Positions 17,031 through 46,095 of a DNA stretch of 64,000 nucleotides are shown here, piece after piece. The notes beneath the pieces are model-generated. The model saw nothing but the letters and a program-made list of their open reading frames with translations. It did not search any database and had not been told where the DNA came from. Numbering within the stretch: the stretch's first letter is position 1; each line of letters starts with the position of its first letter. Both the position numbers and the translations under genes were made by a program. This stretch comes from a virus: IMG/VR virus record IMGVR_UViG_3300044970_001982, positions 45,101 through 109,100 of that record; one strand, 5' to 3'.

Positions 17031-20000
17031 TAGATCACTCTCCTTGGCATAAGGGCTGATTCTTCTGCAGAAATAACAGACTCAGATTCTATCTGCACTT
17101 GCTTAGCGTATACTTGAGCTAAATTATTGGATACTAGTTCCCAGTTTAATGTAACTGGATATCCATCTTCATAATATTCATCCCAGAATATAGTAGGCCA
17201 TTCGCTTGTTTTTTCGTAAGTTGCGTTTAAGATTCTGTATGCAACTAGAGCATTATACAGTTTAACTACGTCATCTTCAGATATTCCATAATTGGTCTGA
17301 GCGTTGTCTCTTAAATATTCGGGAGCAAAGTAAGACAATTTACTATTAATAATTTCATTATATATTGAAAGTTTCTTTACATTCATTGGAGAATCTTCGT
17401 AAATTCCCTTAAAGAACTCTAAACATATAAGATTATTAATTGAGTCTACACTTCCTATATTTTTTTCTTTATTCTTTATAAAGCAGGATGTAACAAATTG
17501 TTCGGCCTGTTGAACAACTGATTCGGGCTGGTAATACCAAATTGTGCCCAAAACTCTTTCTGATGCGGTGACGTCCTTGGCATAATTTGCCACTGTATTT
17601 TCATTTGCACCGGGTTGAAATTGTTGCTCAAATATAACATCATCAGTTGCTGAGTTACTTATTTTTGTTCTAAGAACAAATATTCTATTCTTAAGCTTTT
17701 CTTCTGTATAGAGTTTTGCCCTTCCACCAGGAGTACTTATTGAAGTAAGCTGCGTTTGATTATCTTGATTACCTGGTTCATTTGGAATGCCGCCAACTCT
17801 AATTGTATTAGTTTCTCCAGTATTTATTCCATCAAATCTAACCTTAAATGTAGATCCAGAAATTATATCTTGAACCCAGAAAGTGTCACCGTCAATAAAT
17901 TCGGTAACTTTTACGATCACCCTGAATAGTGATGGTTGGAGATCTGCTTTTTCTGGACCAAGACCGCTTAATTGCAAAACTCTTGCGTGTGTTATTGCAT
18001 TTTCATAGTCTATATGTCTAACTAAATCTTTTATTTCTACTTCTTGCCAGCCAAGACTCTTTAATAAATCGTCACTTCTAATGAATACATTTCCTTCTGG
18101 AGTTTTTACTTTAGTTCTTGCTCCCAACAAACCTGGAAGAAGTGCCTTGGAATGATATCTACCTACAACCATGCCTTGATTATATGACAAGCCGGCATCC
18201 ATTGGCTGGCCATTCTTATTTAGGTATTGTATATAACAACCATGCTGATCAAGTACGTTGTCCCTAATCCATTTCCAGCCCTTCCAAGCTAGCTGTCCAA
18301 CTATAGGAAGTGCAATTGCTGCGGCTGCTCCGCCTGCTGCAGCTGCTATTAGGCCAGAACCAGCTATTAATCCACCAGCAACTGCCTTAAATCCAGTATC
18401 TGAACCACTCTTATTTGCGTCAATTAACTGTTGAGCTTTTTGTGGTAATGTTAATGCAGTTTGATTAGCCATAATATCTTTAACTAAAGATGTAGATCCA
18501 TGCGTATATTCAATTCCACCCATCATTTGTGGCATTAGGGCATCTGATAGGGCGTCTACTGATATATCACCGCCAACATTTATTCCAGTATTTGACGCCA
18601 TAATATTGTCTATATAGAATCTAGTATCATTTCTAATATTTTGTAGCCCCAGCCAGGATCTTAACCATGAAGATAGGAACCAGCGCGATGGGTCATTAAC
18701 AGTAACTAAAGCGTTGGGTGTAATTGATGTTATGTAGCCCATTTCCGGAGTAAAGTGATGAACAACCTGTTCAACTTCAAATAGTCCATACATTCTTTCA
18801 TAGACGTCTGAGAGATATACTAGGTCATGCGGTCTAATATCTGCATTTCCTATGATGATTAGTTCGCCACCATAAATATCTTTAATAGATTCTTTTAGGT
18901 GTGCTAGTGCTATTCTTCTAGCAGACAATTCATCTGGTGTACCTTGAGCATTTTTTGCCACTCCTCTAAATGTTTCAAGGGGATGCATTAATGGGTGCAG
19001 TACTCCAAGGAATCCAGAACCAATCATATTGTCATAATATATTCCTGTTTCAACAGTTATTTCAGTTTGACGTTCTGGTGGCGCACCTTTATCAAGAGCG
19101 ACTGTAACCGGATGCTTTCCATCTGATACCGCAGTAACTACAGTTGCTACGTTATTTAGATTCTCTTGTATTTGATTTGAAATAATATGCGAGAAAGAAC
19201 TAACGTAATGTAGTCGCTGAAATGGCTGTCGTACTTCTAGTACTGGTTCGCCATATTCTCTTGTGAATGGATTATCTACTGCTCTTAATAAAGTGCCAGG
19301 TCTACCCAAGGAATAATAAATTGAATCATTTAAAACCTTATTTAAGATATGTGCTTGTTTTCCAAAGTTTCCAACTTCAGATATAGCGTAACCCATCTGC
19401 ATCATGTTTAATTTAAACATTCCGAGAAGTCCACTAAGACCATCCCCAATTGCAGTAAATATTGGTCCTATATTTCTTTGATAGAAGTCAGATACGTCTT
19501 CACCTATTCCACCTATCCAAGTTGAAGAATTGCTACCCTCTGAAGCGGTAGAAACTAGTAGCTGTAGGAATTTTTCGCTACCTTTTGCATACTGCGAATA
19601 TGGACTTATGAATGCTTCGAAAACCTTATCTACTGGCTTAAATGACCAAGAGCCTTCTGAGCCCTTACCGTTTCCAAAAGGACCTTTCTTTCTGTCTGGC
19701 TTGAGAACTAACCAAGCTCTACCATAAGCTGTGCTCCAAAGTTTTTGCCTAAACAATCCAACCATTAATAAGAATAACTGCTTAGGTGTTTTTATTTGAT
19801 CCGATAACTTTATTGCCTCACTCTGATTATCGGTATTCTCAATAGAATACTGCAGTAGGTTATTTATTATTTGGTTTTCAAAAAAGTTAACTCTAATATT
19901 ATCTAAAGATTTAGATATAACATTATTAAAGTATTCAATGACACCAGCATCTCCGCTTATTCCCTGACTTGTTGCATCAATGTAATTTGTTCTTATAAAT

Positions 20001-23000
20001 TCTATTGTTTGCTTCCTGGCTTCTAATTGAGAAGTTCCTTGTTGCGTACCTTGCCTATTAGAGTCTGTAAAGAAATCTGCGCCTAACAAGATTACTAGTT
20101 CATCAACACCAGTATTTTCTATATTTCCTACATTTTCTAATCCAGGTACATCTACAGTATTATCTGAAAAATTAGAAAATATTTTTGAATTAGTTTTATC
20201 TAAAATTCTCTTGAATTCTTCAGGGAACTCTGTAGTGTCGTCAGGATCTAAACCATATGTTTTTGCAAATATATTTTTTACACTTTCGTATGTGTGGTAA
20301 CCAAATCTAAATTGATCCCATATATCATTAGCCTGTGATAGAGTTCTGCCGTTTCCGGCTATAACAGATACGTTTGGATCAAAATTTTCATCATAGAATG
20401 ATCGCGCCTCAACACTAACAGAATCCATCATGGAATAAACTGGAGCAAATCCAACTCTTCCAGAACCAGTATCGTCGTCTCCAGTTGTATATAGTTCGCC
20501 ATCTAATCTGTCATACAAAGTACTTCTACTTAAAACATCTGTATCATTAGATATTTTTGTAATATCTAATATGGCTTCAAAATATCCCAGGTCATCACCG
20601 CTCTTAAGAACATTTCCACCATATGTATAATCAATATCGGAAATACTTGCATTAGATGCTGACCACTCTGCAAATATTCCACTTGATTCTGCTAATTGTC
20701 TTTCTAAACTATCAGCTGAACCTGTTAGCTGTTTTCTTTGAGCAGTTAGAGTTTCTCCATTTGTTGCCGTGTAGTTTCCAAATCCAATAATATACTCTTC
20801 ATTAACAGCTTTATCATCGCCAACTAAAAATCTCTTTACTGGCGCTAATTCAGAAGATACTACTCCAACTGGAACATCATCCGGAACAAACGCAAAGAAG
20901 CAATCTACTAGCCTTGGTTGAATTGCAATTCCACTAGACTCTTCTAATGTATATAGTGGATTTCTAGAATCGCCGCCAGAATGTTTAAAATTTATAGAAA
21001 CGTCTTCTGATTCAGTTGATCCGATACTAGCCCAATTTGGTAAATTATTTTTTAATTCATCAGGAACTTTATCTACTAAACTAGAGACAAGTGAGCCTAA
21101 GTACCAGGCGGCATCGGGAGAGACCACGGCAGCAACGTCTTCATCTGAATCTTCACCCCACATAAAGTATGCTGGTGCGCATACAACTGCCCTTTGAGTT
21201 AATGGGCTAAATACTAAAACTTTTCTATTTTTATAGTCTTCCGCAGTACCATAGAGGTTTACAAAACCATACTGTTCCTTAAACTTTTCTAGAGATTCTC
21301 CTTGTATTAATTTATCAGAAGAACCTGGTTTATATGGCCATTTCATAGCAATATAAAACTGCTCTTCCAATAGACCCTTAGGAGAACCCCATTCTTGATA
21401 CGATATCTGCTCATTTAATTCATATTCAAAAGAATAATCATCTGCATTTTCAGCAGCGTCTATCGTTGTTACTGTTAACGCTCCAATATCATTTTCTCCA
21501 CCACTAGCAAATATTGATACTGATGGTAGTGGCATTCTTACTATGTTTATTTCTCCAAATAAACTTTGTTCACCAAGATTTAATTGATCTGTTAAACTAG
21601 CTAGACCTAAAGGTCTATCTAATTCATAGGTAATTTCAGAAGATGGTATAATCGTTATGGAGTTTTCTTTTATAAAATTAATTTCCTCTTGCATCAATGC
21701 AAGAATGCCCTTTGTAAACTCCAGCCCTCCCGATACGCCTGTTTTTACAGTATCTCCATCTTCTACATATCTATCTATTAAATCATCGGTAGCTATTTCA
21801 ACTGAGCCTACCTTAAGAGAAACTGGGAAACCTTGTGTATCTGCACGAAGATCTATATATGTTCCTTCTAATAATCCACCATCTCGAATCTCTGTTGAGT
21901 ACTTATTGAGTATTACATTTTCATTAACAGTATAAAATGGGTATCTAAATCTTATTGGAAGGTTGTCTATTTGAGCATGACCCTGAGCATTGTCGTTTCC
22001 TCTGTCTGCAAATGTTTTAGTTGGATCTCCTACGGGTAAGTGAAATCCCATTCTAACTTTTCCAACATTTACTGGTAATTTACAAACTACGTTATAAACT
22101 CCATTCTCATTTCTTTCCGAATAAGAAGATGCCAAATTAGAATTAAAGTTAATCAATCTACCATTAACAGATGCAGTTGGGGCATATATTCCTCTGGAAT
22201 TAACCTGATCTTGCACCAAATCAGATATAACATCTGAAAGTTCAGTTGATCTCTTAAAGGCCTCATAATCTGCTAAAGAGTTGGTTTGTGAACTTACTTG
22301 ATTAATAATATTTTCTATATCATTATTTGGCTGAACTATCTTTGGATATCCAGGAAGATTTAGCTGAGCCGCTTTTTCGTCACTTGGAAAACCCGTTGTT
22401 ACTGGAACTACACCAGAAGTATATAGCCAATGTGGTTTTCCGTAGAAAATTGTTGATCTATCTTCAAATGGTCTAACTGCAACTATGTAGTTTGGAAGTA
22501 GACGTGCACAGGTTTGGAATAAATCCCAAACAGTTCTCATGTATGTTTGAGCCCTAAAGGATACCTCATCAAATCCCTGCAAATCATCGTCAGCGTTGGG
22601 CGATATAATTCCCATAGTTCTAAATAAGTTGTTTCCACCACGCCCCCTTAGAAGACCAAATAGTCCTGCACCAGCTACTGCGCCAGCTACTGGATTTAGT
22701 GCTGCAAGGCCTATTGTTGCAGCACCTTTAAGGACACCTGCGACCAATCCAGCTCTACCTTCAGCGGAAACTAACTTATTGTCTTCTACTAAGTTTTCTA
22801 TTGTTTGAGTAGATGCGGTTGAACCAAGTTCTGCTTCTACTATTAAGCGGTTCCAAGATCTATCTGTAGCGGATTCAATATATCTTTGGCCAGCAAGTCT
22901 AAGACTATCAGTTGAATCCTGTGAAAATGAAGAAGCTGTAGACCAACCATCATCAAGGTCTCCTCCAAGGAATTGAGCAAAGCCCGTTCCATTTCCTGGA

Positions 23001-26000
23001 TAAATATTTCTCTTAAATAATTCTAGGTCTACATCAGAGCAATAGTTAGAGACTAGTTGACCCATACTAGTCATTAAGCTACCATTGCCGAATAGTCCAC
23101 TAACGGGATCTCTACTGAAAACATTAGAAATTCTAAATGCTGCGGAGTTAGCTGCTCCTCCAATATTTAGTTCAGAAAGATTATTATAAACTCCGGCAAC
23201 TGTTTGTCTAATTCCATCTGCACGAGCTCTTTCTATATCATTAAGTGGCTCATACAACATTGTGCCGAAGTGTCTAATGCCGAATCTATTTTCAGAAAAT
23301 ACGGTTCCGTTAGTTGCTCTTGCATAGGCTTCCTTAAATCTACTGGCACCCATGCTAAGAAGTCTAACCATAAGATCTCGTGGCTCCGATAGATACATTC
23401 CAGTATCTACTCCACCATCTATTTTTCCAGTATCTCCCTTTTTATTAGTTGAGTTAACTACAGCGCCTAGCTCAATTGCATCTGATTGAGCAGTGATTGT
23501 TACAATCTCTCCCTGCTCAACATTTGTTATCACTCCATTGAAAACGGTTTGCAAAGAATTTGGATTTGCTCCATATCCACATCTTAAGTGAACTCTAACT
23601 CCTGGCTTGAGTCTTATATTGTTGATATCAACAACATAGTTATTTCTCATTCCAGAAATAATATTTCTAGCGACATTTAATGTTCTATCAAGTATTGCAC
23701 TTATGCCATCGGTTAGATTCAAAGGATCATTGCTGAATTCATCATTATTTGCATTAAATATTTCTGTGGATGGCCGAGTTGTTAACTTAGAATACATATT
23801 TGACATTCTTAAAATAAGAGTGTCACCCAAAAGATCTTCAGAACTTACAACAGAAAAATCAACAATAGATTGTAGTCCGTAGAAATTATCAAATAATTTA
23901 ACACCTGCAAACATTCCACCTTCATCTATTAACCACAGCATGTAAGTTGGAAAGGCTCTAAGCATTCTTCCGGAGATGTCGCGATACTGAATATCATTTA
24001 ACATTTTCTCCATATGGCCGTTAAAGTCACCGCTATATGCTTGCTGATATTGATTCAGTGAACTAACTCCAGCTACTCCTGTTAGAGAGTTTGTGCATCC
24101 CCTATCTGGTGTTTGTGTATCTTCTACGAAATTAGATTGTAACTTTATTTTTGTTCCATTAGAACTATTCTCATCATTTTCTATAGTTACATTGGATCCA
24201 TCTATTGTTAGATAAAATCTTCCATTTTCTTTATTGATATATCCAAAATGAGTTCCAAGTGCAGTCTGCATAAAAGCTGGGATTTCATTTGGATTCTGTT
24301 CTTCTGGATCCATTCCGGGAATTATTGTTATTACTTTATGAAACTCTACTTCATCAGGATCAAAGCTAACTTGGGTTTCATTTTCTAAATGAGAATTAGC
24401 TAAAATATATTTTATTAGATCTTCTGTAGATGTATTTGTTACGCCAACGTTTCCCACTAAATATGGAGCACCGTTTATGTCTTCAAATATTTGCAAATCT
24501 TCACTTGAAGAAGCTGATAAAAAGATAAAATCAGTCAGCAGTGCTTGTTTCCTTACTGATGACTGCCCTTCTGTATTTGCAGAAACAACATCCTGAAATA
24601 TGCTTACAAAATTGTGGACACTAATTCCAGTACTCTGAACATAGTCAATCATTTCGTTTATTAACTGCTCATTAGTAAGTGCCCTTTGCTCTCGGGCATC
24701 TTGGTTATTAGCGTTTGTATAGGAATATCTTGTAATAAAATCTAATATTGTATTTCTAACTGATTGTATTTTTCTCTCTAAGTTATCAGATGTCCCCAAT
24801 GCCCAGTCATCTGAATTATCAAATTCAAACTTTTCAGTTAGATCTAATTGTATTTTTGTATTGTTAATAATATCAGAATCAAACATTGAGAAACTTCTAA
24901 AATAGAAGTCTGGATCTAGATTACCTACAACGCCCCCGTCCTTGTCTTTTATGGACAAAGGAAGATCTGGATACGCATTGAAAGATCCCCACATCTGCTT
25001 AATTCTTAAGAATGGATTTCTTTTTGTTCCAAAATGTTCTATTAATTTTGTTTGTTGGTCTGATGATATCTTCTCTCTTTTTTGCTGGAATATATCAAAG
25101 TCAACAAAACTTAACTGAACAGAATAAACATGTGGATAGTTGGGTATTGTATCTACTCTATAGTTAAGAGGTAATACATACTTAACTCCAGCTAAAGCTG
25201 ATATGATATTTTTAATTCCTAGGAAACCTATAACACCGGTAGAGTGCTCTAATCTAGCTAAACCATTTGCATGATCGAAAATATTCTTTATTTTAATTAA
25301 TTCTTTTTCACCAAAAACAGTTAAAGAAATATTTATATATGTATCTTTGCCACCTATAAATTGATAAGTTGGTTCGTCCTGCATTTGAACTTGCAGCTTT
25401 GCCAAATTGTTACCCATAGTAACGCTTACACCATTAACAATGGCCTCTTTAGGGTTTAGGTCAACTCTAGTCATAGGAACTTCCCATTCGTTAAAATGGT
25501 AGTCACCTTCTCTTAATCGAACTGCTTCCATTAAGTTCTTTACGAATCCATCCTTAAAGAATCTTTCATATAGATTTACCTGGAAAGCGTCAGTTATTTG
25601 TTGACGAATTTTATCTTGATCTACTTCAGTAATACCAGTGCTCTTTTGTTGACGAAGAACTTCTTGATTAACCAATTCATCTACTATTGATCCAGAGGCA
25701 GACGACTCATTGTAAATAGAGTACTTAATATAATTAAGACTTGCGTTATCTCCTTCTGGATTTTTAACAATCTCATTATTTCTATAATAAGATTCAGAAC
25801 CAATTGTTGGATATTGATTAAAATGAAGAGATGGAATTGCATTTTCGCCAGGATAATTTCTTAACCAACTTGCTTGTTCTGAATCTATTCTAGTTATATT
25901 TTCTGAAATAAATGATTGTACTTTATACGCATATACTTTTTCTCTAAAGTCGTCAGTACTGGTGCCTGCTGTCATAATGTCAATTGCTTGACGAACAAAC

Positions 26001-28267
26001 TTTTTAGTGGATAATGGATAAGTTGATTCTAACGAAAGAGAAGATATGTCATTAATATCTTTTATTAATGGTGTAAGACTTGTACGATCAATTCCAAAAT
26101 TTTCTAGAATTCTATCCCAAAGACCAGAACTAGTTTCGTTTAATATTTTTTCTTGCTCACTTCTAAAAGAAGTGCTGTCTGGTAGGAATATTTTTGTTTG
26201 TGTCTCTGCTGGAACAAACAAAGTTAGATTGCTTCCATCTTTCCATTGAGTAACTATATTTGTAGACAGTACATCATTATCGTAAGTGTTAACATATTCT
26301 AAGTTTTCTGCCAAGATGCCATCTTCATCAGTTGTATCTACTGGCATTGCGCCGTATGGACTAACCTCATACGTATCCGCTTGATTTGTAGCTTTATCAT
26401 CTGATGTCTTTAATAAAAACGCCTCACTAACATATCTATGCATTTCTCCTGCGGCTTTGCCCATATATTGACGATATTTACCCCAGTGAATAGCCTGATT
26501 AAAATCTTTAATCATTGGCAAGAATGGCTTGTGATTATAACTGTATAATTCTAAGTCAACTACTAATGCAAATGGATAACTTGGTATTGTTGATATAGAC
26601 ATAGCGGATAGTGCAACAGCTGTAATTCCGTGCACAGAGTTTATATACTGATTCTTGATTGGTAGAATTGGAGAATACTTAAACGCTGCAATTAATCCTC
26701 TGAGTGAGGATAAGAACTTATCTATTTTATCTTCTGAGTCTCCACCATTTTTGAAATCTATAGTAAAGTTTTCATTTAAATCTAAGCTAGAAGCGTCGTC
26801 TATTGAGAGACCCCATATTTCTTCATAGTTAGGGAAAAATAATCTTAACGATACCGTGGTTTCTTTGTATCCAGCATTAAACTTTGGAGTGTTTCTTTGA
26901 CGTATTGCACCACCTGTAAGGGATCCAGTTTTAAATGCAGAATTAACACTAACAGAAACTGGTGGAACATAAAAGTTTGCAGCTCCTAGTCTTAAATGAA
27001 AGATATCTGGTTTTCTAGGTGGTATATTTGCCCTGAATGGAAAATCTTGTAAAGCTTTTTTAATTCTTTCTGAAGTTGTATAAAACTTTTCTGTGCCAGC
27101 TAAAGTAAATATTGGCTTACCAGATTGACTAACGCCAAATGCTTTTTCTAGCGAAAGAATAGCGTCTGCCATATTATTAAGAGTATCCTCTTGGCCTCCA
27201 CCCTTTCCGTTATTTGAATAGTCGCCAACAACAGCTATAGCATCAAAAACAAACGTCAGCAATGATGGGAAATAGTGGTTTATTATAGAGAATGAAATAG
27301 GATCTTGCTGAAGACTATAAACAACTTGACTTAGTTGTTGTAACCATGGAGTATCTACCGATGGATCTATAAAATCATTTGCAGATTTTTTAACTGTTGC
27401 TATATTTTGCAATCTTTTCTTAGCGAACTCTCCTATTTCATAGGCATAGGATGCCAGGTAGATTAAACCCGTAGATTCTAACCTGGAATATATACTTCTA
27501 GCTAAAGTTTCTTCTTCTGAAGTATTTAAAAGATTTTTAATATCTATGCCAAAAACCCTCGAAGTTGCTCTTACATTTTTTTCTGTAATTTCATCTTTTC
27601 TTGTCTTTTGGAAAAATTCTTCCATTGGGTCTACTTGAGTTCCGTCGTTGGCGCCAAAATATATTAAACTAAAGAACCTCTGAACTTGGTAAATTGCTTC
27701 ATCTTCTTCATAATTTTTTTCGTCTTCTACTGTTTCTTCGGAAACCAATCTTTCTTCAAATGCAAGAAGCTGCTCTAGCATTTCATCATTAATGCCAACA
27801 TCTATAGATGTTTCATACCATATTGTTATTCTTTCCAATATTTTAGATGCTAAAAATTTAGTTACCTTTTCATCCGCATCCGTATATGCATAGTTTGTTA
27901 CAAAGTGATTTATTATATCTGCTTCAGTAGAAAGACCTGGATTTTGCAAAACCCCAAATCTAGCGCTTATAACACTAAGATATTCATCTAATACTAAAGA
28001 CGTATTTATTGCTGTTCCAGATATAAAAATCGATACAGATTTTTTGTATAAGGCTAAAGAATATTTATCATTAAAGTCTAAATTAATTAACTGTGAACCG
28101 GTTATATCTGGAGTAGATAAATCTACGTTATCGCCAAACTGAAGGAACGCAGATAGGCTAGATGTAGAAACGGACTGATCTGATAGATAGGCACTTAGGG
28201 TAGTATAGTCTAAGTCGCTTTCAGCTATATATGTAAGAGCTTGTCGTGCTATTGAATTTATTGCCAT
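17030..28267 (-). CDS. Giant baseplate hub protein with an RlpA-like barrel, hydrophobic helices and a C-terminal thermonuclease (SNase) domain
   Basis: 3745 aa. Hub-like GELIIIGNADIRPHDLVYL...FEVEQVVHHF; SNase-like VTEFIDGDTF...VRFDGINTGE...RVLG...LNWELVSNNLAQVY; RlpA-like YIAMKW...RKVLV...VSPDAAWYLG. Confidence 0.7.
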   Translation of the reverse strand: MAINSIARQALTYIAESDLDYTTLSAYLSDQSVSTSSLSAFLQFGDNVDLSTPDITGSQLINLDFNDKYSLALYKKSVSIFISGTAINTSLVLDEYLSVISARFGVLQNPGLSTEADIINHFVTNYAYTDADEKVTKFLASKILERITIWYETSIDVGINDEMLEQLLAFEERLVSEETVEDEKNYEEDEAIYQVQRFFSLIYFGANDGTQVDPMEEFFQKTRKDEITEKNVRATSRVFGIDIKNLLNTSEEETLARSIYSRLESTGLIYLASYAYEIGEFAKKRLQNIATVKKSANDFIDPSVDTPWLQQLSQVVYSLQQDPISFSIINHYFPSLLTFVFDAIAVVGDYSNNGKGGGQEDTLNNMADAILSLEKAFGVSQSGKPIFTLAGTEKFYTTSERIKKALQDFPFRANIPPRKPDIFHLRLGAANFYVPPVSVSVNSAFKTGSLTGGAIRQRNTPKFNAGYKETTVSLRLFFPNYEEIWGLSIDDASSLDLNENFTIDFKNGGDSEDKIDKFLSSLRGLIAAFKYSPILPIKNQYINSVHGITAVALSAMSISTIPSYPFALVVDLELYSYNHKPFLPMIKDFNQAIHWGKYRQYMGKAAGEMHRYVSEAFLLKTSDDKATNQADTYEVSPYGAMPVDTTDEDGILAENLEYVNTYDNDVLSTNIVTQWKDGSNLTLFVPAETQTKIFLPDSTSFRSEQEKILNETSSGLWDRILENFGIDRTSLTPLIKDINDISSLSLESTYPLSTKKFVRQAIDIMTAGTSTDDFREKVYAYKVQSFISENITRIDSEQASWLRNYPGENAIPSLHFNQYPTIGSESYYRNNEIVKNPEGDNASLNYIKYSIYNESSASGSIVDELVNQEVLRQQKSTGITEVDQDKIRQQITDAFQVNLYERFFKDGFVKNLMEAVRLREGDYHFNEWEVPMTRVDLNPKEAIVNGVSVTMGNNLAKLQVQMQDEPTYQFIGGKDTYINISLTVFGEKELIKIKNIFDHANGLARLEHSTGVIGFLGIKNIISALAGVKYVLPLNYRVDTIPNYPHVYSVQLSFVDFDIFQQKREKISSDQQTKLIEHFGTKRNPFLRIKQMWGSFNAYPDLPLSIKDKDGGVVGNLDPDFYFRSFSMFDSDIINNTKIQLDLTEKFEFDNSDDWALGTSDNLERKIQSVRNTILDFITRYSYTNANNQDAREQRALTNEQLINEMIDYVQSTGISVHNFVSIFQDVVSANTEGQSSVRKQALLTDFIFLSASSSEDLQIFEDINGAPYLVGNVGVTNTSTEDLIKYILANSHLENETQVSFDPDEVEFHKVITIIPGMDPEEQNPNEIPAFMQTALGTHFGYINKENGRFYLTIDGSNVTIENDENSSNGTKIKLQSNFVEDTQTPDRGCTNSLTGVAGVSSLNQYQQAYSGDFNGHMEKMLNDIQYRDISGRMLRAFPTYMLWLIDEGGMFAGVKLFDNFYGLQSIVDFSVVSSEDLLGDTLILRMSNMYSKLTTRPSTEIFNANNDEFSNDPLNLTDGISAILDRTLNVARNIISGMRNNYVVDINNIRLKPGVRVHLRCGYGANPNSLQTVFNGVITNVEQGEIVTITAQSDAIELGAVVNSTNKKGDTGKIDGGVDTGMYLSEPRDLMVRLLSMGASRFKEAYARATNGTVFSENRFGIRHFGTMLYEPLNDIERARADGIRQTVAGVYNNLSELNIGGAANSAAFRISNVFSRDPVSGLFGNGSLMTSMGQLVSNYCSDVDLELFKRNIYPGNGTGFAQFLGGDLDDGWSTASSFSQDSTDSLRLAGQRYIESATDRSWNRLIVEAELGSTASTQTIENLVEDNKLVSAEGRAGLVAGVLKGAATIGLAALNPVAGAVAGAGLFGLLRGRGGNNLFRTMGIISPNADDDLQGFDEVSFRAQTYMRTVWDLFQTCARLLPNYIVAVRPFEDRSTIFYGKPHWLYTSGVVPVTTGFPSDEKAAQLNLPGYPKIVQPNNDIENIINQVSSQTNSLADYEAFKRSTELSDVISDLVQDQVNSRGIYAPTASVNGRLINFNSNLASSYSERNENGVYNVVCKLPVNVGKVRMGFHLPVGDPTKTFADRGNDNAQGHAQIDNLPIRFRYPFYTVNENVILNKYSTEIRDGGLLEGTYIDLRADTQGFPVSLKVGSVEIATDDLIDRYVEDGDTVKTGVSGGLEFTKGILALMQEEINFIKENSITIIPSSEITYELDRPLGLASLTDQLNLGEQSLFGEINIVRMPLPSVSIFASGGENDIGALTVTTIDAAENADDYSFEYELNEQISYQEWGSPKGLLEEQFYIAMKWPYKPGSSDKLIQGESLEKFKEQYGFVNLYGTAEDYKNRKVLVFSPLTQRAVVCAPAYFMWGEDSDEDVAAVVSPDAAWYLGSLVSSLVDKVPDELKNNLPNWASIGSTESEDVSINFKHSGGDSRNPLYTLEESSGIAIQPRLVDCFFAFVPDDVPVGVVSSELAPVKRFLVGDDKAVNEEYIIGFGNYTATNGETLTAQRKQLTGSADSLERQLAESSGIFAEWSASNASISDIDYTYGGNVLKSGDDLGYFEAILDITKISNDTDVLSRSTLYDRLDGELYTTGDDDTGSGRVGFAPVYSMMDSVSVEARSFYDENFDPNVSVIAGNGRTLSQANDIWDQFRFGYHTYESVKNIFAKTYGLDPDDTTEFPEEFKRILDKTNSKIFSNFSDNTVDVPGLENVGNIENTGVDELVILLGADFFTDSNRQGTQQGTSQLEARKQTIEFIRTNYIDATSQGISGDAGVIEYFNNVISKSLDNIRVNFFENQIINNLLQYSIENTDNQSEAIKLSDQIKTPKQLFLLMVGLFRQKLWSTAYGRAWLVLKPDRKKGPFGNGKGSEGSWSFKPVDKVFEAFISPYSQYAKGSEKFLQLLVSTASEGSNSSTWIGGIGEDVSDFYQRNIGPIFTAIGDGLSGLLGMFKLNMMQMGYAISEVGNFGKQAHILNKVLNDSIYYSLGRPGTLLRAVDNPFTREYGEPVLEVRQPFQRLHYVSSFSHIISNQIQENLNNVATVVTAVSDGKHPVTVALDKGAPPERQTEITVETGIYYDNMIGSGFLGVLHPLMHPLETFRGVAKNAQGTPDELSARRIALAHLKESIKDIYGGELIIIGNADIRPHDLVYLSDVYERMYGLFEVEQVVHHFTPEMGYITSITPNALVTVNDPSRWFLSSWLRSWLGLQNIRNDTRFYIDNIMASNTGINVGGDISVDALSDALMPQMMGGIEYTHGSTSLVKDIMANQTALTLPQKAQQLIDANKSGSDTGFKAVAGGLIAGSGLIAAAAGGAAAAIALPIVGQLAWKGWKWIRDNVLDQHGCYIQYLNKNGQPMDAGLSYNQGMVVGRYHSKALLPGLLGARTKVKTPEGNVFIRSDDLLKSLGWQEVEIKDLVRHIDYENAITHARVLQLSGLGPEKADLQPSLFRVIVKVTEFIDGDTFWVQDIISGSTFKVRFDGINTGETNTIRVGGIPNEPGNQDNQTQLTSISTPGGRAKLYTEEKLKNRIFVLRTKISNSATDDVIFEQQFQPGANENTVANYAKDVTASERVLGTIWYYQPESVVQQAEQFVTSCFIKNKEKNIGSVDSINNLICLEFFKGIYEDSPMNVKKLSIYNEIINSKLSYFAPEYLRDNAQTNYGISEDDVVKLYNALVAYRILNATYEKTSEWPTIFWDEYYEDGYPVTLNWELVSNNLAQVYAKQVQIESESVISAEESALMPRRVI

Positions 28268-28272: not shown

Positions 28273-28719
28273 CTACTTAAACATCATGTTATTTCTAATA
28301 ATAGTTTTTAATCTATCGCTGGAAGAATCCTTCATAGTTGAAGAACTGTAGTTATTAATTATACTAGATTTTGTTTCCAAATTAAAGGAATTTTGAATAA
28401 AATTTGCATTTACTCTGTTGCTGACATCTTTTGAATACCTGGCTTTTTGTTGAGATTTATTATCATAGCCAGTACCATTCATTTGTATATAGGTAGAAGA
28501 TGAGTTGTCCATTCCTTCAAATGAACCTTTAAGCTTGTCAGACTTACCTGTAGCTTGTATCTTTTGTCTAGAATCAGAGACTACATTTCTTGCCGGTGAT
28601 TTAGAAGATGATATTTTAGCTGCGTACTTATTGGCAGTGAGAGTTCTATGAGAGGTGTCTTTAGGCTGTTTTCCAGCAGCGCTTAGTGCTTTATTTTGAT
28701 CTTTTACACCTAAAATCAT
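28273..28719 (-). CDS. Small basic, S/K-rich hypothetical protein
   Basis: 148 aa ORF filling the gap between adjacent genes, same strand. Confidence 0.7.
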   Translation of the reverse strand: MILGVKDQNKALSAAGKQPKDTSHRTLTANKYAAKISSSKSPARNVVSDSRQKIQATGKSDKLKGSFEGMDNSSSTYIQMNGTGYDNKSQQKARYSKDVSNRVNANFIQNSFNLETKSSIINNYSSSTMKDSSSDRLKTIIRNNMMFK

Positions 28720-28730: not shown

Positions 28731-31700
28731 CTAAAAAGATCCGGCAATTTCCTGGTACGGATTTGAAGCTACATCAGGGATTCTATTATACATAGTACTG
28801 TTAATATTTCCATTAGTAAGTCCTGAAGCAGCTTGTCTAAAACTTTCTACCTGATCTCTATTTCCATAGAGGGAAACTTTATAATTCATACCTGGATTAT
28901 AGCTTTTTCCTGACATTGCAGCAATTTCTGATAACTTTCTAGGATAGTCTGATTCATATGCAGATCCTCCAGGTAGTAGTGGTGGACCACTTATATCCTC
29001 AGCAGTTCTATCCTTAGACCCTTGATATATAAAACTTGCAGCTACGGCAAGTCCTGTTCCAATAGCAATATTTCTAACAGTGGGCTTAGCTAACTGTTCC
29101 GATAAGTATTCTTTAGTAATCCTTTGGAATCTTGCCTTTTTTGTCGGAGATCTTTCATCTGAAAGAGCTCGAAGAGTATCTGCAACTACGTCTGGTGTAT
29201 CATCAGCGATTTGATCAGCCGACCTTAATACATTCCCTGATGCATTTGATCCATTAACAAAGGCAGCTGCTTTAGAGTCATTTATTTGAGCTTGCTCATA
29301 AACAACCCTTGCCCTAATCGCACTACTAATTTGAACCTCTTGTGCGGTTGCCTCTGCAGCTTCTTTATCTAATAGTAAGCTCTTAATGACATCAGCCCTG
29401 CCATACTGTTCTCCATTTGAGGAGAAAAATCCATCTACAAAATCAAAATCCATAGAGGTATTTAATATGCCGGCTCTTTGTTCTGGGCTAAAAGTTAATG
29501 ATTCAATAAAATCTTTTAATGCAACATTTGAAGTTGCTCGTTGATAATTTCTTCTTTTTTGCGCCATATCTAAGTATCTATGTAGAGTATGTGCCCTTTC
29601 AACACCATCTCCAATCAAAGTTGTGTCTGGTAGTTTTTCTAATAAACCAAGTGGATATTTTCTTTGAGAAGAAACATATTCCAAAGAGCTAATTAATTCA
29701 TAGCCACTTATGCCCATGGTCCTACTTACATCTTCCATGTCTGCAAGAAGTCTGTCACCAAGTTGGAACTTTAAATTTTCCATACGATACTTGGCCATTT
29801 CTTCTAAGTTTGCATCACCTTGTTGATCCATTATTTCTTTTATAGAGGAAATAATTTGACTATTGCGATCTAAGATATTTTCTGCAGCTATTCTAGACTC
29901 TCTAGTAATATCTGCTGCTAATAGTTGTTCTTGTGATGCGCTTCTTGTCGAATATAGCTTAAATAGTGCGCTACTGTATCTTTCTGATATGTTTGCTGCT
30001 GCTTCCATTTCTGATAGTTTTCCAACACCTATAAATCCTCTTGATCTTAGTAGCTTCTCAACTTCTTCGTGACCACCAGCAACTGCGTCATTAAACTGCT
30101 TAATATCTTCAGCGTTTGCACCGCCTTCAACCATTCCTTGAGAAATTCCTTCAGCGATTATTGTTAGATCTGATTTACTCAATTTTCCACTGGATAATAG
30201 AACTTCATCAATCTTTGCATCAAAGCCTTGATATTGAGATAGAAAGCCAAATAACTTTCCGTACTGGCGCATTGTTGTTTCTCCAAATTGTCCTAAATTA
30301 AGAGCTTGTTGTCCATATATTCTTTCTAAAGCTGTTTTTGCTATACTTGGATCAGATGCAGCGAGTTCAGAAGTATGCTTTAATATTAAACGTCCAGAGG
30401 TAAACGTTTGAGTCATGTCAATTGCGGTTTCAGCTGGAAGCAAGCCAAGCATTATGTTTTTTTGTTTTAATATTTCCTCTATATTTGCAGGCAGTTTATT
30501 TCCTTTAAACATTTGCTCAAATTCATATAAACCTTGACCAATAACAGTAGACCTATTGACATATACGCCAAGTATATTTTCATTTTCTATTGCAGTTTGA
30601 ACACTTCTCTTTAAGAAATCTTCAGACACTACTTGATTAAGTATCTTGTAGTCTATAGAGCTTACTGCCTTATAGAGTGCTTCGGAATCGCCTGCTTTTG
30701 CAAGATCTTTCATTGACTGTATTTGAGTCGCAGACAAATGTGGAGATAGCTTATTAAATAACTCATCAGCAACTTGCATGGTCTCCACTTCTGCCTTTAA
30801 TCTTTGGAAACCTAATGACATAAGCATTGGGTCTTCAGCACCACGTGCAATTAATTGTGTTGCTGAAAGATTTTCTGATGCCGTTCTTCCAAGTCTTTGA
30901 AGAAAAGCGGCGTCAAATTTTCTTCCTTTATTTTGATATAGTTGATCCCAGACTCTTATAGCAGTTTGTTCTATATTATTCATATCAAACATATCATCTA
31001 TAAAATCTTTACCAGTTAATGCTGTTTTTAAAGTAGATAAATCTGAATCACTACTAGCAACTAACATTTCATCTAATTGACGCATAAATAGTTTATTATT
31101 GCCAAATAATTCCTGATAAGTTTCAAGGTCACTAAATCTAGTTAAGCCTATTAATTCTCCAGCTGCTGTTGGTTGACGAGCCATCGCAGCTGCAAATCTT
31201 CTTTTACCACCTGATTCAAAGGTGCCTAAAATTGGCAAACCCTTGTCGTCAAGGTCGAATCCACCTAGGGCATGGTAAAATCTTCTGATGTCATTTTCAT
31301 GGAATAAAATATTATGATTAGATATTCTAAACTTGGCCATCTCAACATTTGTTCCACCAATGTCAAATGCTTCAGCGGTTCCAGAAAGAATGTTCATATT
31401 ACCCTTAACTCCGGTCATAGCATTAGCTTCTGAGTTAATTGCATATCTATAAACTTCTGGAAGAACTGGAAGTTTCATTCCCTTTCTGCTTACAAATAAT
31501 TCTGAATCATAATATACTTTTAATAAGTTTAAATACTCATTTGAATCTCTAATTGAAACTCCACTTTGATGAAGTTCAAGAACTCTTTTTGCCCAGTCTC
31601 TGTTTAACATCTTACTAAATTGTTGCTCTTCAGGTAAGGCATCTATATCCTGTGAGGAAATTTTTCTAATTGCCTTCATGACATTATGGTCTTCATTAAT

Positions 31701-33380
31701 TCTTCCTCTTGCTAAAAGAGCTTCAAATTCATCAAGAACTCCTTTTCTATATTTTTCTATCATAGCAAGTTCTTCTGGTTCGCCAAAAATAGATTGATGA
31801 AAAGCTGTTAACATTGGATCAGAGTAGACTCTACTTGTAGATTCTGCTGCACCGCTGAAGTTTAGAATTGCAGTACCTGCTGCAATTGATGTATCTCTTT
31901 TCAATCCAGCTACACTTGTTATAATTCCATACTTATCAAAACGATCTAGAAAATCAACAACTTGTGCGGCTGATTTATAGTTAACGTCTCTATTGCCTAT
32001 TCTTACAGAACCACGAACAGTCATTTGAGACATCTGTTCGTTTAACTGAGTTAATTGTCTGTCTATTTCTATTCTTCTAGTTATTGAATCTTCATCAAAT
32101 TTTGTAGCTAAACTACTTTTTTCTTTTCTTAATTGAGCTTTAAGATTATTAATATTTTTTCTATTAATTAAAGAAGAACCGTCATATCCCTTTTCAATTT
32201 CATCAAATAAATTACCAATAATACCTTTTTCTGATGAACTAAATGATTTAGACTCTTTTAATTTCTTCTTTGCTATATCTATTCCATATTCACCGGTTGC
32301 AGCATCTATTTGACCAGAATTTGCTATTTCATTTATAAAAGTTTTTAACCTATTCTGAACATCATCTATGTCCAATAAAGCTTTTCCTTCTGCAGCAAGT
32401 TTGCTATTTTCAACATCTATTAATTCTGATAAAGGTGATTTAATTACAGAAAGAGCATCAGCTTGAGATCTATTTGTTCTTATATATGACATTACGTCGG
32501 CCTGTTTTCCAACAGAAGATAACAATCTAGTATCGTTTTCTTCAAAAGCGTAAGCCATTATTTCGAATACATTATCAACATTTAAAGTAGCGTTTGCTAG
32601 AGCAGTCATTCTACTAACAGAATTTGCTGCGCCAGTTGGGTCTAGGAAATTAAATCCTAAAAATGAATCAATTAAAGATCCAGAAAGAGATACATCTCTA
32701 GGAGACAAAACACCCTTGAGTCGTTTTGGCAATTTTGCAAACAATTTGCTTAGACCTTTGTCACCTTGTGATATAGCCCTAAGTAATTCTTCTTCTTCAA
32801 AAAGCCCTCTTCCAGTATCTTGTAAAACTTCTATCGCTTCAGATGTGCTAAGAACTTTATCTCCCAATATAAAATTAAGAGCCATTCCACCTTCATCTGT
32901 AGGGAAAACGAAACCAGTTCCATTGTCGGTCATGCTTTTTAGGAAGTCACCTATAGATTTACTTCCTTGTCTAGCTTTGTGAATTGCTATCTGAGCACTT
33001 AGTGTTTTGCCTTTATATCTATTATTAGTTTTTAGCGCGCTATTCATTTCTGCGAGAACTTGCTCATAACCCCTAAATGTAGATGGGCTTAGTTCGTCTG
33101 CAAAGTTTATATTTGCTAACTCTGTTATTCCAAAACCAGAAACATACGTTGCAGCTTCGTCTACTGTAGAAAATACTTGTTGTGCCGATATTCCTGGAAT
33201 ACCAGATAGTTTTGGATTAAAATAACTTGCCTTAAATTTTAATCTTCCGTCTTCAACAACTGGTTCTATTAATCTTTTTTGTCCAAAATATGTTTTAGAT
33301 AGCGATTGTTTTGCGATCAACATTTGCCTGTCTATTGACAGGTTATTCAAATAAGATGTAACATCTATTATCGGTTCCAC
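28731..33380 (-). CDS. Putative single-subunit two-barrel RNA polymerase (QDE-1/YonO-like), probably virion-associated
   Basis: Ordered motifs: YDG (D400), R456, K469, K494, LGGFDLDD (706-712), RQPTAAGE (R735), LGVYVN (937-942), AID (D988); C-terminal hydrophobic helix. Confidence 0.65.
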   Translation of the reverse strand: MEPIIDVTSYLNNLSIDRQMLIAKQSLSKTYFGQKRLIEPVVEDGRLKFKASYFNPKLSGIPGISAQQVFSTVDEAATYVSGFGITELANINFADELSPSTFRGYEQVLAEMNSALKTNNRYKGKTLSAQIAIHKARQGSKSIGDFLKSMTDNGTGFVFPTDEGGMALNFILGDKVLSTSEAIEVLQDTGRGLFEEEELLRAISQGDKGLSKLFAKLPKRLKGVLSPRDVSLSGSLIDSFLGFNFLDPTGAANSVSRMTALANATLNVDNVFEIMAYAFEENDTRLLSSVGKQADVMSYIRTNRSQADALSVIKSPLSELIDVENSKLAAEGKALLDIDDVQNRLKTFINEIANSGQIDAATGEYGIDIAKKKLKESKSFSSSEKGIIGNLFDEIEKGYDGSSLINRKNINNLKAQLRKEKSSLATKFDEDSITRRIEIDRQLTQLNEQMSQMTVRGSVRIGNRDVNYKSAAQVVDFLDRFDKYGIITSVAGLKRDTSIAAGTAILNFSGAAESTSRVYSDPMLTAFHQSIFGEPEELAMIEKYRKGVLDEFEALLARGRINEDHNVMKAIRKISSQDIDALPEEQQFSKMLNRDWAKRVLELHQSGVSIRDSNEYLNLLKVYYDSELFVSRKGMKLPVLPEVYRYAINSEANAMTGVKGNMNILSGTAEAFDIGGTNVEMAKFRISNHNILFHENDIRRFYHALGGFDLDDKGLPILGTFESGGKRRFAAAMARQPTAAGELIGLTRFSDLETYQELFGNNKLFMRQLDEMLVASSDSDLSTLKTALTGKDFIDDMFDMNNIEQTAIRVWDQLYQNKGRKFDAAFLQRLGRTASENLSATQLIARGAEDPMLMSLGFQRLKAEVETMQVADELFNKLSPHLSATQIQSMKDLAKAGDSEALYKAVSSIDYKILNQVVSEDFLKRSVQTAIENENILGVYVNRSTVIGQGLYEFEQMFKGNKLPANIEEILKQKNIMLGLLPAETAIDMTQTFTSGRLILKHTSELAASDPSIAKTALERIYGQQALNLGQFGETTMRQYGKLFGFLSQYQGFDAKIDEVLLSSGKLSKSDLTIIAEGISQGMVEGGANAEDIKQFNDAVAGGHEEVEKLLRSRGFIGVGKLSEMEAAANISERYSSALFKLYSTRSASQEQLLAADITRESRIAAENILDRNSQIISSIKEIMDQQGDANLEEMAKYRMENLKFQLGDRLLADMEDVSRTMGISGYELISSLEYVSSQRKYPLGLLEKLPDTTLIGDGVERAHTLHRYLDMAQKRRNYQRATSNVALKDFIESLTFSPEQRAGILNTSMDFDFVDGFFSSNGEQYGRADVIKSLLLDKEAAEATAQEVQISSAIRARVVYEQAQINDSKAAAFVNGSNASGNVLRSADQIADDTPDVVADTLRALSDERSPTKKARFQRITKEYLSEQLAKPTVRNIAIGTGLAVAASFIYQGSKDRTAEDISGPPLLPGGSAYESDYPRKLSEIAAMSGKSYNPGMNYKVSLYGNRDQVESFRQAASGLTNGNINSTMYNRIPDVASNPYQEIAGSF

Positions 33381-41289: not shown

Positions 41290-42261
41290 CTAGAAACTTA
41301 AATTTTGACCATTCTGCTGCTGAAAATCTTGCCAATTGCTTGTTGAGCTAACTGGAACCTGCGACTGAGTCTGCCTTGCAGAATTGGGGGTATTTGATGC
41401 TACAAATGTAGTACTTGTCTTTATTAAGTCATCAGGAACTTCAGAGAAATAATGATCTCTTGCTATAAACTGATATGTTTCAGCTAAAGCCTGACCACCT
41501 GGGGTATAAACCATAGACATATTCATTAAGTTAACTTCTTGAATAATAATTTTCATGGGGGTTGTTAAATTACTTGATTTAACGGTTCTTTGATTATAAT
41601 CTGAAATCATCATTTGATCTGTTAGATCTGTCCTTTTTTCATCCTGATTTTGAAATGCGTTTGTAGGTGTAAGGGCAATTTCTTCTAATCCATAGACTAT
41701 AACAAAATTAAATGGTGGGTGGGCGCTAAAGATGTTTCTATTTGAATTTTGAACATTCTTAGCAAAGGGGTCCTGACTGACTCTATCTAGTTGACTACGC
41801 GCCCAGTATTTATCCATCAATCTTTCGTCTTCTTCGTTTTCAAATGTAGAGCGTAAGTTTGATGCTATTTTATTTGGAGAATTTTTATCTTTGGCAGCAG
41901 CTACTCTCATTTGTGCTGCAATTTCTAGAAGTTCTGTCATTCTTCTGGGATATCTTGTGAAGATAGTTATTTCTCCATTTATAATTCTTGAACCATACAT
42001 CATGGCGTCATAATTGTATGACCAAAATCCATATAAAGGCTGCTTTTCTTGTCTGACATTAAAGCCAAATGTTGCGATGTCTAATTCGTATTCTGGAGCA
42101 AATAGTCCATCAATATAGACTCGAATATCTTCGCCACTAAAATAATAGTCGTAATAATTAGTAAACCTTAGGTCATTCTTTGCTCCACCACCCCATACCA
42201 AATCTAGCTTTTCATGAAGTGGGTCAAACTCTCTTATTCCATCATTATTTCTTATCGTCAT
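41290..42261 (-). CDS. Tail tube-fold protein 3 (tube initiator-like)
   Basis: YFSGEDIRV...FNVRQEKQPLYGF...GSRIINGEITI...PPFNFVI aligns by eye with the tube protein. Confidence 0.65.
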   Translation of the reverse strand: MTIRNNDGIREFDPLHEKLDLVWGGGAKNDLRFTNYYDYYFSGEDIRVYIDGLFAPEYELDIATFGFNVRQEKQPLYGFWSYNYDAMMYGSRIINGEITIFTRYPRRMTELLEIAAQMRVAAAKDKNSPNKIASNLRSTFENEEDERLMDKYWARSQLDRVSQDPFAKNVQNSNRNIFSAHPPFNFVIVYGLEEIALTPTNAFQNQDEKRTDLTDQMMISDYNQRTVKSSNLTTPMKIIIQEVNLMNMSMVYTPGGQALAETYQFIARDHYFSEVPDDLIKTSTTFVASNTPNSARQTQSQVPVSSTSNWQDFQQQNGQNLSF

Positions 42262-43019
42262 ATTGGCTTAACTTCTTTAGTCTTAGTCACCTTGTTATAC
42301 TTTTGATTATAGTATTCGGCCTCATTTAACTGAGCTAATTCATCTATAATTAAATCGCCAAACACATTGGTGCTTATTTGATCTCGGGCTTTCATTTCAT
42401 CAGTATAAGAATCATCCCTAGAAACAAGAGCATCATCTGGCATCTTGATGAGTGGCTGTATTCCTCTTGCCATATATGTATATGTTTGCTCTGTAATCAA
42501 GTCATCAATAGATAGAGTTTGACCTTCATCTACTATAGTAACTCCATACAGTTTCATTTTTGCACCTAATCCATACTCATTAAAAAATGTAATGACTATA
42601 TCAAAGGGTGGCAACATATCTGCAAGAGGAGCAAAGAATCCCTTTTTTCTTGATAGATATTCTTTGAACTGCTTTATTCTATAGAACGCATATTCATTAA
42701 ACACTGTGAATATTAGGCTGCCGGCGATTGTTCTTCCACCTTTTACGAAACCTTTTACGTTTACATGTCCAAGAGTTCTTATTGGCGAGTTTTCTCTATG
42801 TATAGAGTATGATATTGTCTGCAATTCACCTAAGGTAATTACATCTCCAGATCCATCTATGTTTCCATCTTTGCCAATTACTGGAATAATGATTGTTGCG
42901 ACTGCGTCAGCCCCAGAAAATGACATTGTTGATAAAAATTTATCTGGATCAAATAAATCATTTTTTTGATTTTCTATTTTTTTATTTTCGCTTAAACTGA
43001 ATATTTTTGGACCTACCAT
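42258..43019 (-). CDS. Tail tube-fold protein 2
   Basis: SFSGADAVAT...SIHRENSPIRTLG...GGRTIAGSLIFTVF...ADMLPPFDIVITFFNEYG, a clear paralogue of 43092..43754. Confidence 0.75.
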   Translation of the reverse strand: MVGPKIFSLSENKKIENQKNDLFDPDKFLSTMSFSGADAVATIIIPVIGKDGNIDGSGDVITLGELQTISYSIHRENSPIRTLGHVNVKGFVKGGRTIAGSLIFTVFNEYAFYRIKQFKEYLSRKKGFFAPLADMLPPFDIVITFFNEYGLGAKMKLYGVTIVDEGQTLSIDDLITEQTYTYMARGIQPLIKMPDDALVSRDDSYTDEMKARDQISTNVFGDLIIDELAQLNEAEYYNQKYNKVTKTKEVKPI

Positions 43020-43036
43020 ATTATTCTCCTATAACT

Positions 43037-43071
43037 AAAAAGGTGCACGGAATATACATCCATGCACCTTT
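43037..43071 (-). terminator. Rho-independent terminator after the major tube gene
   Basis: Minus strand AAAGGTGCATGGA-TGTATAT-TCCGTGCACCTTTTT: 13-bp stem with one U.G pair, followed by a U-tract. Confidence 0.8.
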
Positions 43072-43091
43072 GTTAGAGAGTGATAAAACTA

Positions 43092-45017: not shown

Positions 45018-45061
45018 GTTGTATTTTATCCTCCAAATTAAAAGACGTATTTGAATCTTTC

Positions 45062-45071
45062 TTTATAGTAA
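45062..45071 (-). promoter_or_regulatory. Putative late promoter box TTACTATAAA (sheath)
   Basis: Intergenic, about 45 nt upstream of the sheath ATG; the motif recurs before other structural genes. Confidence 0.6.
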
Positions 45072-46094: not shown

Positions 46095-46095
46095 T

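Follow-up and report, generated by a model that had tools for sequence, protein, structure and literature searches.

The P0001 gene, with which this analysis is concerned, encodes a 1549-residue protein and lies among tail genes in a 64,000-nucleotide stretch of viral DNA (the window; positions 45,101 to 109,100 of IMG/VR record IMGVR_UViG_3300044970_001982). The assignment of P0001, by its predicted fold, to the clade of single-chain RNA polymerases (RNAPs) with two double-psi beta-barrels (DPBBs) is well supported, and the protein is probably a very divergent polymerase of this type that is held in the tail or particle, is delivered with the DNA, and transcribes the first phage genes. A single-chain two-barrel fold had been proposed in an initial annotation on the basis of short motifs in the open reading frame (ORF); structure prediction and structure searches uphold it at the level of the model, the top matches being QDE-1/RDR2, gp66, and the gp96/gp64-type enzymes. 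What was examined directly for P0001 is its conservation, predicted fold, co-linearity with known polymerases, and synteny, from which we infer catalysis, template, packaging, and injection.

Predicted fold and relationship to known polymerases

Models were obtained with AlphaFold2, using a 50-sequence alignment, for residues 1–1200 (mean predicted local distance difference test score (pLDDT) 82.5, predicted template modelling score (pTM) 0.81) and for a 320-residue core comprising residues 441–760 (pLDDT 87.8, pTM 0.80), in which core residue n corresponds to protein residue n+440. In a Foldseek search of the PDB the full model gave a sole match at E ≤ 0.001, i.e. the virion RNAP of phage phi14:2, gp66 (6vr4; E 7.9e-4, prob 0.93), with multiple QDE-1 chains and Arabidopsis RDR2 (AtRDR2) at the next ranks. 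On VIA re-alignment of the Foldseek list the top ten entries were all single-chain two-barrel RNAPs, including AtRDR2 (Z 6.8, 473 residues aligned), six QDE-1 entries (Z 6.1–6.6, 492–522 residues, root mean square deviation 4.3–5.4), the gp64-type non-virion RNAP 8f72 (Z 5.3, 398 residues), and gp66 (Z 5.0, 580 residues), with short helical matches from rank 11 on.

When the full model was compared with 48,161 representative chains without the use of Foldseek, long alignments were obtained only with ZmRDR2 (Z 7.9, 492 residues), QDE-1, and gp66. Against the same chains, the core ranked QDE-1 (Z 6.5, 227 residues) and ZmRDR2 (Z 6.1, 209 residues) first and second, P74-26 gp62 third (Z 5.7, 183 residues), and P23-45 gp96 fourth and fifth (Z 5.1 and 5.0, 144–149 residues), the sixth entry being a short helical match (Z 4.1). 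AtRDR2 aligned with the core with a Z-score of 7.2 over 210 residues, at 17% identity. The BFVD library of viral models returned two uncharacterised phage proteins first (E 7.6e-11 and 2.1e-9), then pieces of crAss-like virion RNAPs.

The full-model alignments to gp66, QDE-1, and RDR2 begin at model residues 22–90 and reach residues 1138–1158. The match of P0001 with QDE-1 (517 residues, 11% identity, 4.5 Å) is of the same order as the published gp66–QDE-1 superposition (479 residues, 8.6% identity, 3.5 Å; 10.1101/2020.03.07.982082), and the approximately 105-residue connector between the putative barrels of P0001 is comparable with those of gp66 and QDE-1 (~140 and ~127 residues, respectively; 10.1101/2020.03.07.982082).

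Elements expected on either side of the catalytic barrel have possible counterparts in the model. The basic residues R456, K469, and K494 of the first beta-rich domain, each at least 90% conserved, are candidates for facing the Asp loop. An LGxxxNR motif is located on a long helix and is followed 50 residues later by AID, i.e. in the same order as G1546/N1552 and V1611/D1612 in gp66, where the conserved G1546 and N1552 are on the bridge helix (1529–1559), and V1611-D1612 are in the trigger loop (1598–1636) (10.1101/2020.03.07.982082).

The highest Z-scores with P0001 are those of QDE-1 and RDR2 (2j7n, 7y7p, 7eu1, 7w84; 6.1–7.9 for the full model and 6.1–7.2 for the core), with 209–227 of 283 core residues aligned co-linearly, 10–17% sequence identity in the structural alignments, and a GG pair before the acidic loop in common. 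By contrast with P0001, these are cellular enzymes acting on RNA or single-stranded DNA templates, with DLDGD or DYDGD loops and RNPCLHPGD before the loop. With gp66, P0001 has in common two barrels, predicted in P0001, and a helical connector (576–580 aligned residues), a loop that fits the pattern G-x(5)-D-K with a residue other than glycine at its fourth position, and a location beside the tail genes of a ~100-kb phage; gp66, however, is a 2180-residue protein of a podovirus-like crAss phage, with a DFDID loop preceded by YRIPNQ. The non-virion RNAPs P23-45 gp64 and P74-26 gp62 (8f72, 8f5m; Z 5.3–5.7, 183–398 residues aligned) are likewise compact single-chain two-barrel enzymes, but, unlike P0001, have only ~590 residues and a canonical Asp triad, and are early gene products encoded outside the tail module. 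Thus, P0001 resembles QDE-1/RDR2, gp66, and the gp96/gp64-type enzymes in its predicted structure, and gp96 also in its locus, and is a sequence-level member of none of these groups.

The acidic loop and the order of the catalytic motifs

A word-indexed search gave 36 homologues of P0001, and an exhaustive phmmer search with residues 381–1000 against 1.84 billion representatives gave 138 clusters, of which 72 scored below 1e-30. The 138 are metagenomic throughout, and no member carries a name. All the residues singled out in the initial annotation are invariant in a 26-sequence alignment. In a broader alignment of 115 sequences (18–76% identity to P0001), G706, D709, D711, D712, R735, P737, and E742 are invariant, so that the GGxDxDD and RxP..GE motifs proposed there are conserved at these positions; conservation is 90% or higher for K216, K219, R220, D400, G401, R456, K469, K494, D521, R645, F708, G938, N942, and D988. 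The complete LGGFDLDDK string is present in 84 of the 115 sequences. The conservation of the motifs is far beyond chance, and the observation on which the annotation was based is confirmed.

The order of the two motifs is unusual. As had been noted, RxP..GE lies approximately 25 residues after the Asp loop in P0001. In 162 of 169 family proteins that were fetched, G-x-[FYHM]-D-x-D-D is followed by RxPxxxxE 21–32 residues further on, and the remaining seven are mostly short fragments, which apparently do not cover the site; in the sequences, therefore, the Asp loop does precede RxP..E. In gp66, gp96, and the RDRs, RxP precedes the loop, and it was from this difference in order that circular permutation of the catalytic double-psi barrel was proposed, with the half bearing RxP..GE displaced to after that bearing the Asp loop.

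The structural comparisons make such a permutation highly improbable, and at the level of the models we reject it. Sequential alignments run co-linearly over the first barrel, the connector, and the second barrel and end 8–29 residues past the Asp loop in P0001 and in the targets alike, the alignments with four RNAP families stopping just after strand 713–723. With AtRDR2, core residues 1–280 align with 563–842, ending 8 residues past D712 and 8 past D834 (830-DLDGD-834). With gp96, core residues 1–301 align with 518–812, ending 29 residues past both D712 and D783 (779-DFDGD-783). With QDE-1, core residues 1–283 align with 724–1026, ending 11 residues past D712 and 15 past D1011, which we take to be the last Asp of a loop at 1007–1011. 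Because these co-linear alignments put GGFDLDD at the canonical Asp-loop position, the barrel does not appear to be permuted. The distance from the end of the connector to the Asp loop is 83 residues in P0001, ~88 in QDE-1, and 123 in gp66. In both models the order of elements is strands 635–639 and 646–650, helix 651–655, strands 670–674, 677–687, and 690–693, helix 695–700, the loop, and strand 713–723. In the canonical double-psi order the metal loop follows the second short helix and precedes the last strand, and the order in P0001 matches this.

Before the loop, at the canonical place, P0001 has a conserved FRxSxH motif (F684, R685, and H689 at least 90% conserved in homologues), which ends strand 677–687, 24 residues before D709, and is probably the classical Arg motif, RxPxxH, kept in a degenerate form that lacks the Pro; in gp96 FRNPVMGH is 37 residues before DFDGD, and in gp66 YRIPNQ is 39 residues before DFDID. 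The RQPxxxxE motif, by contrast, is an additional, family-specific invariant element and is new. RQP is at the end of strand 726–736, before which the QDE-1, RDR2, and gp62 alignments stop, and neither gp66 nor gp96 has a counterpart of RQPxxxxE following its Asp loop. The RQP strand pairs as a hairpin with the last barrel strand and, judged from the topology, would run antiparallel to it, unlike the strand bearing RxP in a double-psi barrel.

The composition of the loop is the second departure from known enzymes. Every one of the 162 homologues covering the loop has G-[GT]-[FYHM]-D-x-D-D there, and none has DxDxD; the reading of the metal loop as DxDD, in place of DxDGD or DxDxD, thus holds in every homologue spanning the site. 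The three carboxylates are at loop positions 4, 6, and 7, not 3, 5, and 7, although the flanking G and K residues and the loop length are common to GGFDLDDK of P0001, GSDFDIDK of gp66, and GG-DLDGD of RDR2. P0001 hence lacks the DxDxD triad that characterises the two-barrel superfamily, though its loop sits at the canonical place. The DxDD loop may bind the catalytic Mg, possibly with assistance from E742, D400, or D751. As a more tentative and rather doubtful extension, P0001 is possibly the first natural two-barrel lineage without DxDxD, in which a re-registered DxDD is combined with the invariant RQPxxxxE, in a protein that perhaps also serves a contractile tail as its tape-measure or lumen protein. 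If this is so, myoviruses would have a fusion of transcription machinery with tail-length/ejection machinery, comparable with that in the siphovirus P23-45. The strictly conserved DxDD also provides a natural test of how far the universal Asp triad of cellular-type RNAPs can be rearranged.

Tail-module location and proposed role

The description of P0001 as a tail-module gene, beside the hub and translationally coupled, is borne out by its neighbours. The 2220-residue product of the upstream ORF, with the stop codon of which (TAG) the GTG start of P0001 overlaps, is a homologue of ORF145 of Bacillus phage 0305phi8-36, a virion protein as identified by mass spectrometry, and the 3745-residue hub-like protein has co-linear BLASTP matches to ORF147, the 'baseplate hub protein' of the same phage. 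In 0305phi8-36, ORF146, a 'hypothetical tape measure protein', lies between ORF145 and the hub ORF147. P0001 fills the tape-measure slot, because ORF146 holds the same place between the homologues of its neighbours; in a profile search against ORF145–147, however, ORF146 was unrelated to P0001.

The tail block, which is on the minus strand, comprises genes for the sheath, tube paralogues, 323-, 180-, and 209-residue proteins, the 2220-residue protein, P0001, a 148-residue protein, and the 3745-residue protein. The order [253][323][180][209][2220][P0001][148][hub] (sizes in residues) is identical in 13 divergent IMG/VR contigs of 36–210 kb, across which the one-base start/stop overlap is mostly kept. 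P0001 is the fastest-evolving member of the block (23–47% identity, compared with 40–68% for its 2220-residue and hub neighbours), with its active-site motifs invariant.

Conservation along P0001 is highest in the block at 701–750, followed by two C-terminal blocks (0.75–0.79). The C-terminal domain (residues 1449–1549), which contains GPPLLPGGSAYE and TMYNxIP and has many invariant residues, follows a poorly conserved helical arm (block conservation 0.45–0.54) and a Gly/Ala-rich segment, the hydropathy of which is below the standard transmembrane (TM) threshold. The combination of a conserved C-terminal domain with a variable helical arm and a Gly/Ala-rich stretch is in keeping with a structural contact in the tail that is conserved. 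With Pfam, PHROGs, and hydropathy analysis we found in P0001 no match to a tape measure protein family, no peptidase, and no clear TM segment, and a search of the ESM Atlas with the C-terminal 400 residues gave unnamed clusters only (scores <0.8).

The closest precedent by locus is gp96 of P23-45 (with homologues in P74-26, G20c, and TSP4), a virion two-barrel RNAP fused to the N terminus of a tape measure protein (PMC10770324; 8h2m/8h2n). P0001 is like gp96 in its predicted single-chain two-barrel fold, its tape-measure locus, its N-terminal polymerase part, and its long helical C-terminal part. By contrast, gp96 has 5002 residues, canonical DFDGD and FRNPVMGH motifs, metallopeptidase and TM domains, and a non-contractile, very long tail as its setting, whereas P0001, with 1549 residues, a DxDD loop, and no peptidase detected, is encoded by a contractile-tailed phage; there is no detectable sequence similarity between the two.

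On the reading that we consider probable, P0001 would be made late with the tail proteins, anchored via its C-terminal domain, and kept within or alongside the tail, perhaps with a second function as a lumen or tape-measure protein, and would exit the particle together with the DNA; gp66 of phi14:2, an injected virion RNAP, is a precedent (10.1101/2020.03.07.982082). The N-terminal ~1150 residues would then act on the incoming genome as a single-chain two-barrel RNAP, with a beta-like barrel (bearing R456, K469, and K494) joined through a helical connector to a beta-prime-like barrel presenting the GGFDLDDK metal-binding loop; the barrel topology would be ordinary, with FRxSxH before the loop and the extra RQPxxxxE after a hairpin past the last barrel strand. 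Later genes would be transcribed by the host polymerase together with the phage sigma-like factor. A second RNAP was sought in the genome and none was found; among the large ORFs, a DxDxD-like string occurs elsewhere only in the portal protein.

The slot corresponding to that of the putative tape measure protein of 0305phi8-36, the long helical C-terminal arm, the very conserved C terminus, the absence of a canonical DxDxD triad, and divergence faster than that of the neighbouring genes are all consistent with P0001 being a structural tail protein (tape measure or lumen/ejection), with a polymerase-derived N-terminal part that no longer polymerises and with residues conserved for folding, assembly, or nucleic-acid binding. 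This explanation is, however, unlikely. The retention of the three acidic residues together with R735, P737, E742, K494, D400, and D988, at ~20% overall identity, is the pattern of an active site rather than of a scaffold, and P23-45 gp96 shows that an RNAP linked to a tape measure protein can be active (PMC10770324).

It is less probable still that P0001 is an active two-barrel enzyme with another job, such as RNA synthesis from RNA templates, priming, or, as in archaeal PolD, DNA synthesis, the DxDD and RQP..E motifs reflecting a changed substrate or chemistry. The closest structures by Z-score are indeed RNA-silencing RNA-dependent RNA polymerases, QDE-1 is described as using both DNA and RNA templates (PMC9508822), and the metal loop and extra invariant motif differ from those of all the transcribing relatives examined. 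All known phage members of the clade, however, transcribe phage genes (PMC10770324), and the tail-module position fits an early enzyme that is delivered; a replicative role is not needed, because a DnaE-type polymerase, a primase, and a helicase are encoded by the phage itself.

Several points weigh against assignment of P0001 as an early-transcribing polymerase. Foldseek with the isolated 441–760 core gave no match at E ≤ 0.001 (RDR2 was at rank 4, E 0.31), and the structural Z-scores are modest (5–8). Activity with DxDD is unproven, because each triad Asp is needed in all characterised two-barrel RNAPs; in gp66 each Asp of the triad is essential (10.1101/2020.03.07.982082). No distinct early-promoter motif was found in the genome. 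Furthermore, no sequence method ties the P0001 family to any RNAP. There were no meaningful matches for P0001 in Pfam (including no peptidase domain), in PHROGs (whole protein and three pieces), or in a profile search of all PDB sequences; Pfam gave nothing for five long distant homologues, and tblastn against 50,697 phage records gave no meaningful match and revealed no cultured relative of the family. HHalign of the P0001 family against a crAss virion RNAP profile (41 sequences, i.e. phi14:2 gp66 and 40 homologues) gave no significant match, whether run globally, locally, or with the barrel only (probability 2% for the full core, 0.6% for the barrel), and P0001 has no detectable sequence homology to the gp66 orthologues, including at their DFDxD motif. 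The lack of a sequence link is usual, in that two-barrel RNAP families share little beyond the Asp-loop region (PMC10770324).

Virion-borne or injected two-barrel RNAPs have been described in crAss-like phages and in a single group of Thermus siphoviruses, and the P0001 family, of which no published description was found in a literature search, would extend this strategy to a large and wholly uncultured contractile-tailed lineage, in which there are no fewer than 138 clusters at 50% identity, on contigs of 70–210 kb. At present, phages of this kind are taken to depend on the host polymerase, since a gene of the P0001 type escapes recognition by all sequence tools.

Features of the gene and of the contig

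The ORF, its one-nucleotide overlap with the upstream gene, and all the motifs quoted in the initial annotation were located in the sequence where it had placed them. The start and stop codons share the G of the GTG, with AGGTG 10–14 nt upstream of the start. The motifs are GYDGSSLI (398–405), TVRG (454–457), YKSA (468–471), KLPVLP (636–641), GGFDLDDK (706–713, of which GGFDLDD is nt 31265–31245), RQPTAAGE (735–742), NILGVYVN (935–942), and TAID (985–988). The first beta-rich domain has model strands at 453–461, 464–475, and 505–509. Coordinates of these and the neighbouring features are collected in Table 1.

Table 1. Window coordinates of P0001, its predicted regions and motifs, and the adjoining genes
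Feature	Coordinates	Strand	Basis
2220-residue upstream gene, ORF145 homologue (virion protein in Bacillus phage 0305phi8-36)	33380..40042	-	Sequence comparison
P0001, RNA-polymerase-like gene (1549 residues) in tape-measure slot	28731..33380	-	ORF and translation
N-terminal region, residues 1–440, with K216/K219/R220 and D400-G401 motif	32061..33380	-	Conservation; structural alignments
First beta-rich domain, residues 452–512, putative DPBB-B (beta-like barrel), with R456/K469/K494	31845..32027	-	Model strands; conservation; co-linear QDE-1/RDR2 alignments
Helical connector, residues 522–626, joining the two barrels	31503..31817	-	Four helices in both models
Second beta-rich domain, residues 629–723, putative catalytic DPBB-A (beta-prime-like barrel)	31212..31496	-	Element order; alignment ends
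F684-R685-x-S-x-H689, probable RxPxxH counterpart before Asp loop	31314..31331	-	At least 90% conservation and position; equivalence inferred
Metal-binding-type loop, G706-G-F-D709-L-D711-D712-K713	31242..31265	-	Invariant acidic residues; between helix 695–700 and strand 713–723
R735-Q-P737-x4-E742, family-specific motif after extra hairpin strand 726–736	31155..31178	-	Invariance in homologues
Long helix pair, residues 911–959, with L937-G938-x3-N942-R943, candidate bridge helix	30504..30650	-	Helices 911–932 and 936–959
E984-x-A-I-D988, candidate start of trigger-loop region	30417..30431	-	D988 conservation; gp66 comparison
Long helical C-terminal arm, residues 1121–1420, modelled up to residue 1200	29121..30020	-	Helices 1121–1155 and 1160–1187
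Gly/Ala-rich hydrophobic segment (~residues 1433–1452) and C-terminal domain (1449–1549)	28734..29036	-	Block conservation
148-residue gene, conserved, between P0001 and hub	28273..28719	-	Present in all 13 related loci
3745-residue baseplate-hub-like protein with peptidoglycan-hydrolase-type domain	17030..28267	-	phrog_20474, E 3.7e-121

In four related IMG/VR contigs the P0001-like gene is split into two or three ORFs (L048:9611-14267, L063:9908-14229, L073:9998-14627, and L075:9344-14603). The giant genes flanking the split gene are mostly intact, those in L063 being fragmented too, and the splits could reflect assembly or frameshift errors or be true splitting. The 148-residue protein, which has no Pfam or PHROGs family match, is 44–70% identical across the 13 contigs (100% in the near-identical L006) and may be a partner or chaperone of P0001 or of the hub.

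The 109.1-kb contig also encodes a portal, a major capsid protein, two sheath-like and two tube-like paralogues, and a baseplate J-like protein, as well as a DnaE-type polymerase, a primase, a DnaB helicase, a ribonucleotide reductase, and a sigma-like factor. The tube-like pair (phrog_9206, a family to which PHROGs gives the label 'major head protein') and the two sheath-like proteins, at window positions 42258–43754 and 43782–47715, mirror the paired paralogues annotated in Bacillus phage 0305phi8-36, and the tail module looks related to that of this jumbo phage, though the genome is only 109 kb. A 1823-residue distal tail protein (window positions 2124–7595) has a peptidoglycan-binding domain (PF01471, residues 904–946) and weak matches to endolysin families.

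The sole large plus-strand gene found (outside the window, at genome positions 1583–3601; 672 residues) was considered as a polymerase and rejected, its product being a Thr/Pro-rich acidic-repeat protein. With initial hydrophobic segments followed by poly-Thr, Pro/Glu-rich, and acidic repeat tracts, it looks, from its sequence, like a surface or secreted protein.

The only 8-mer enriched genome-wide in the intergenic regions upstream of genes is TTACTATA(A), which is not enriched over the whole window (nine found, 6.1 expected). Its sites are at window positions 45064–45071 and 56928–56935 and at seven others, and one copy precedes the sheath gene by ~50 nt. At the contig end, outside the window (genome positions 1 to ~350), the initial 100 bases are found again, without a mismatch, at offset 177 (0-based), which indicates a tandem repeat with a 177-bp period.

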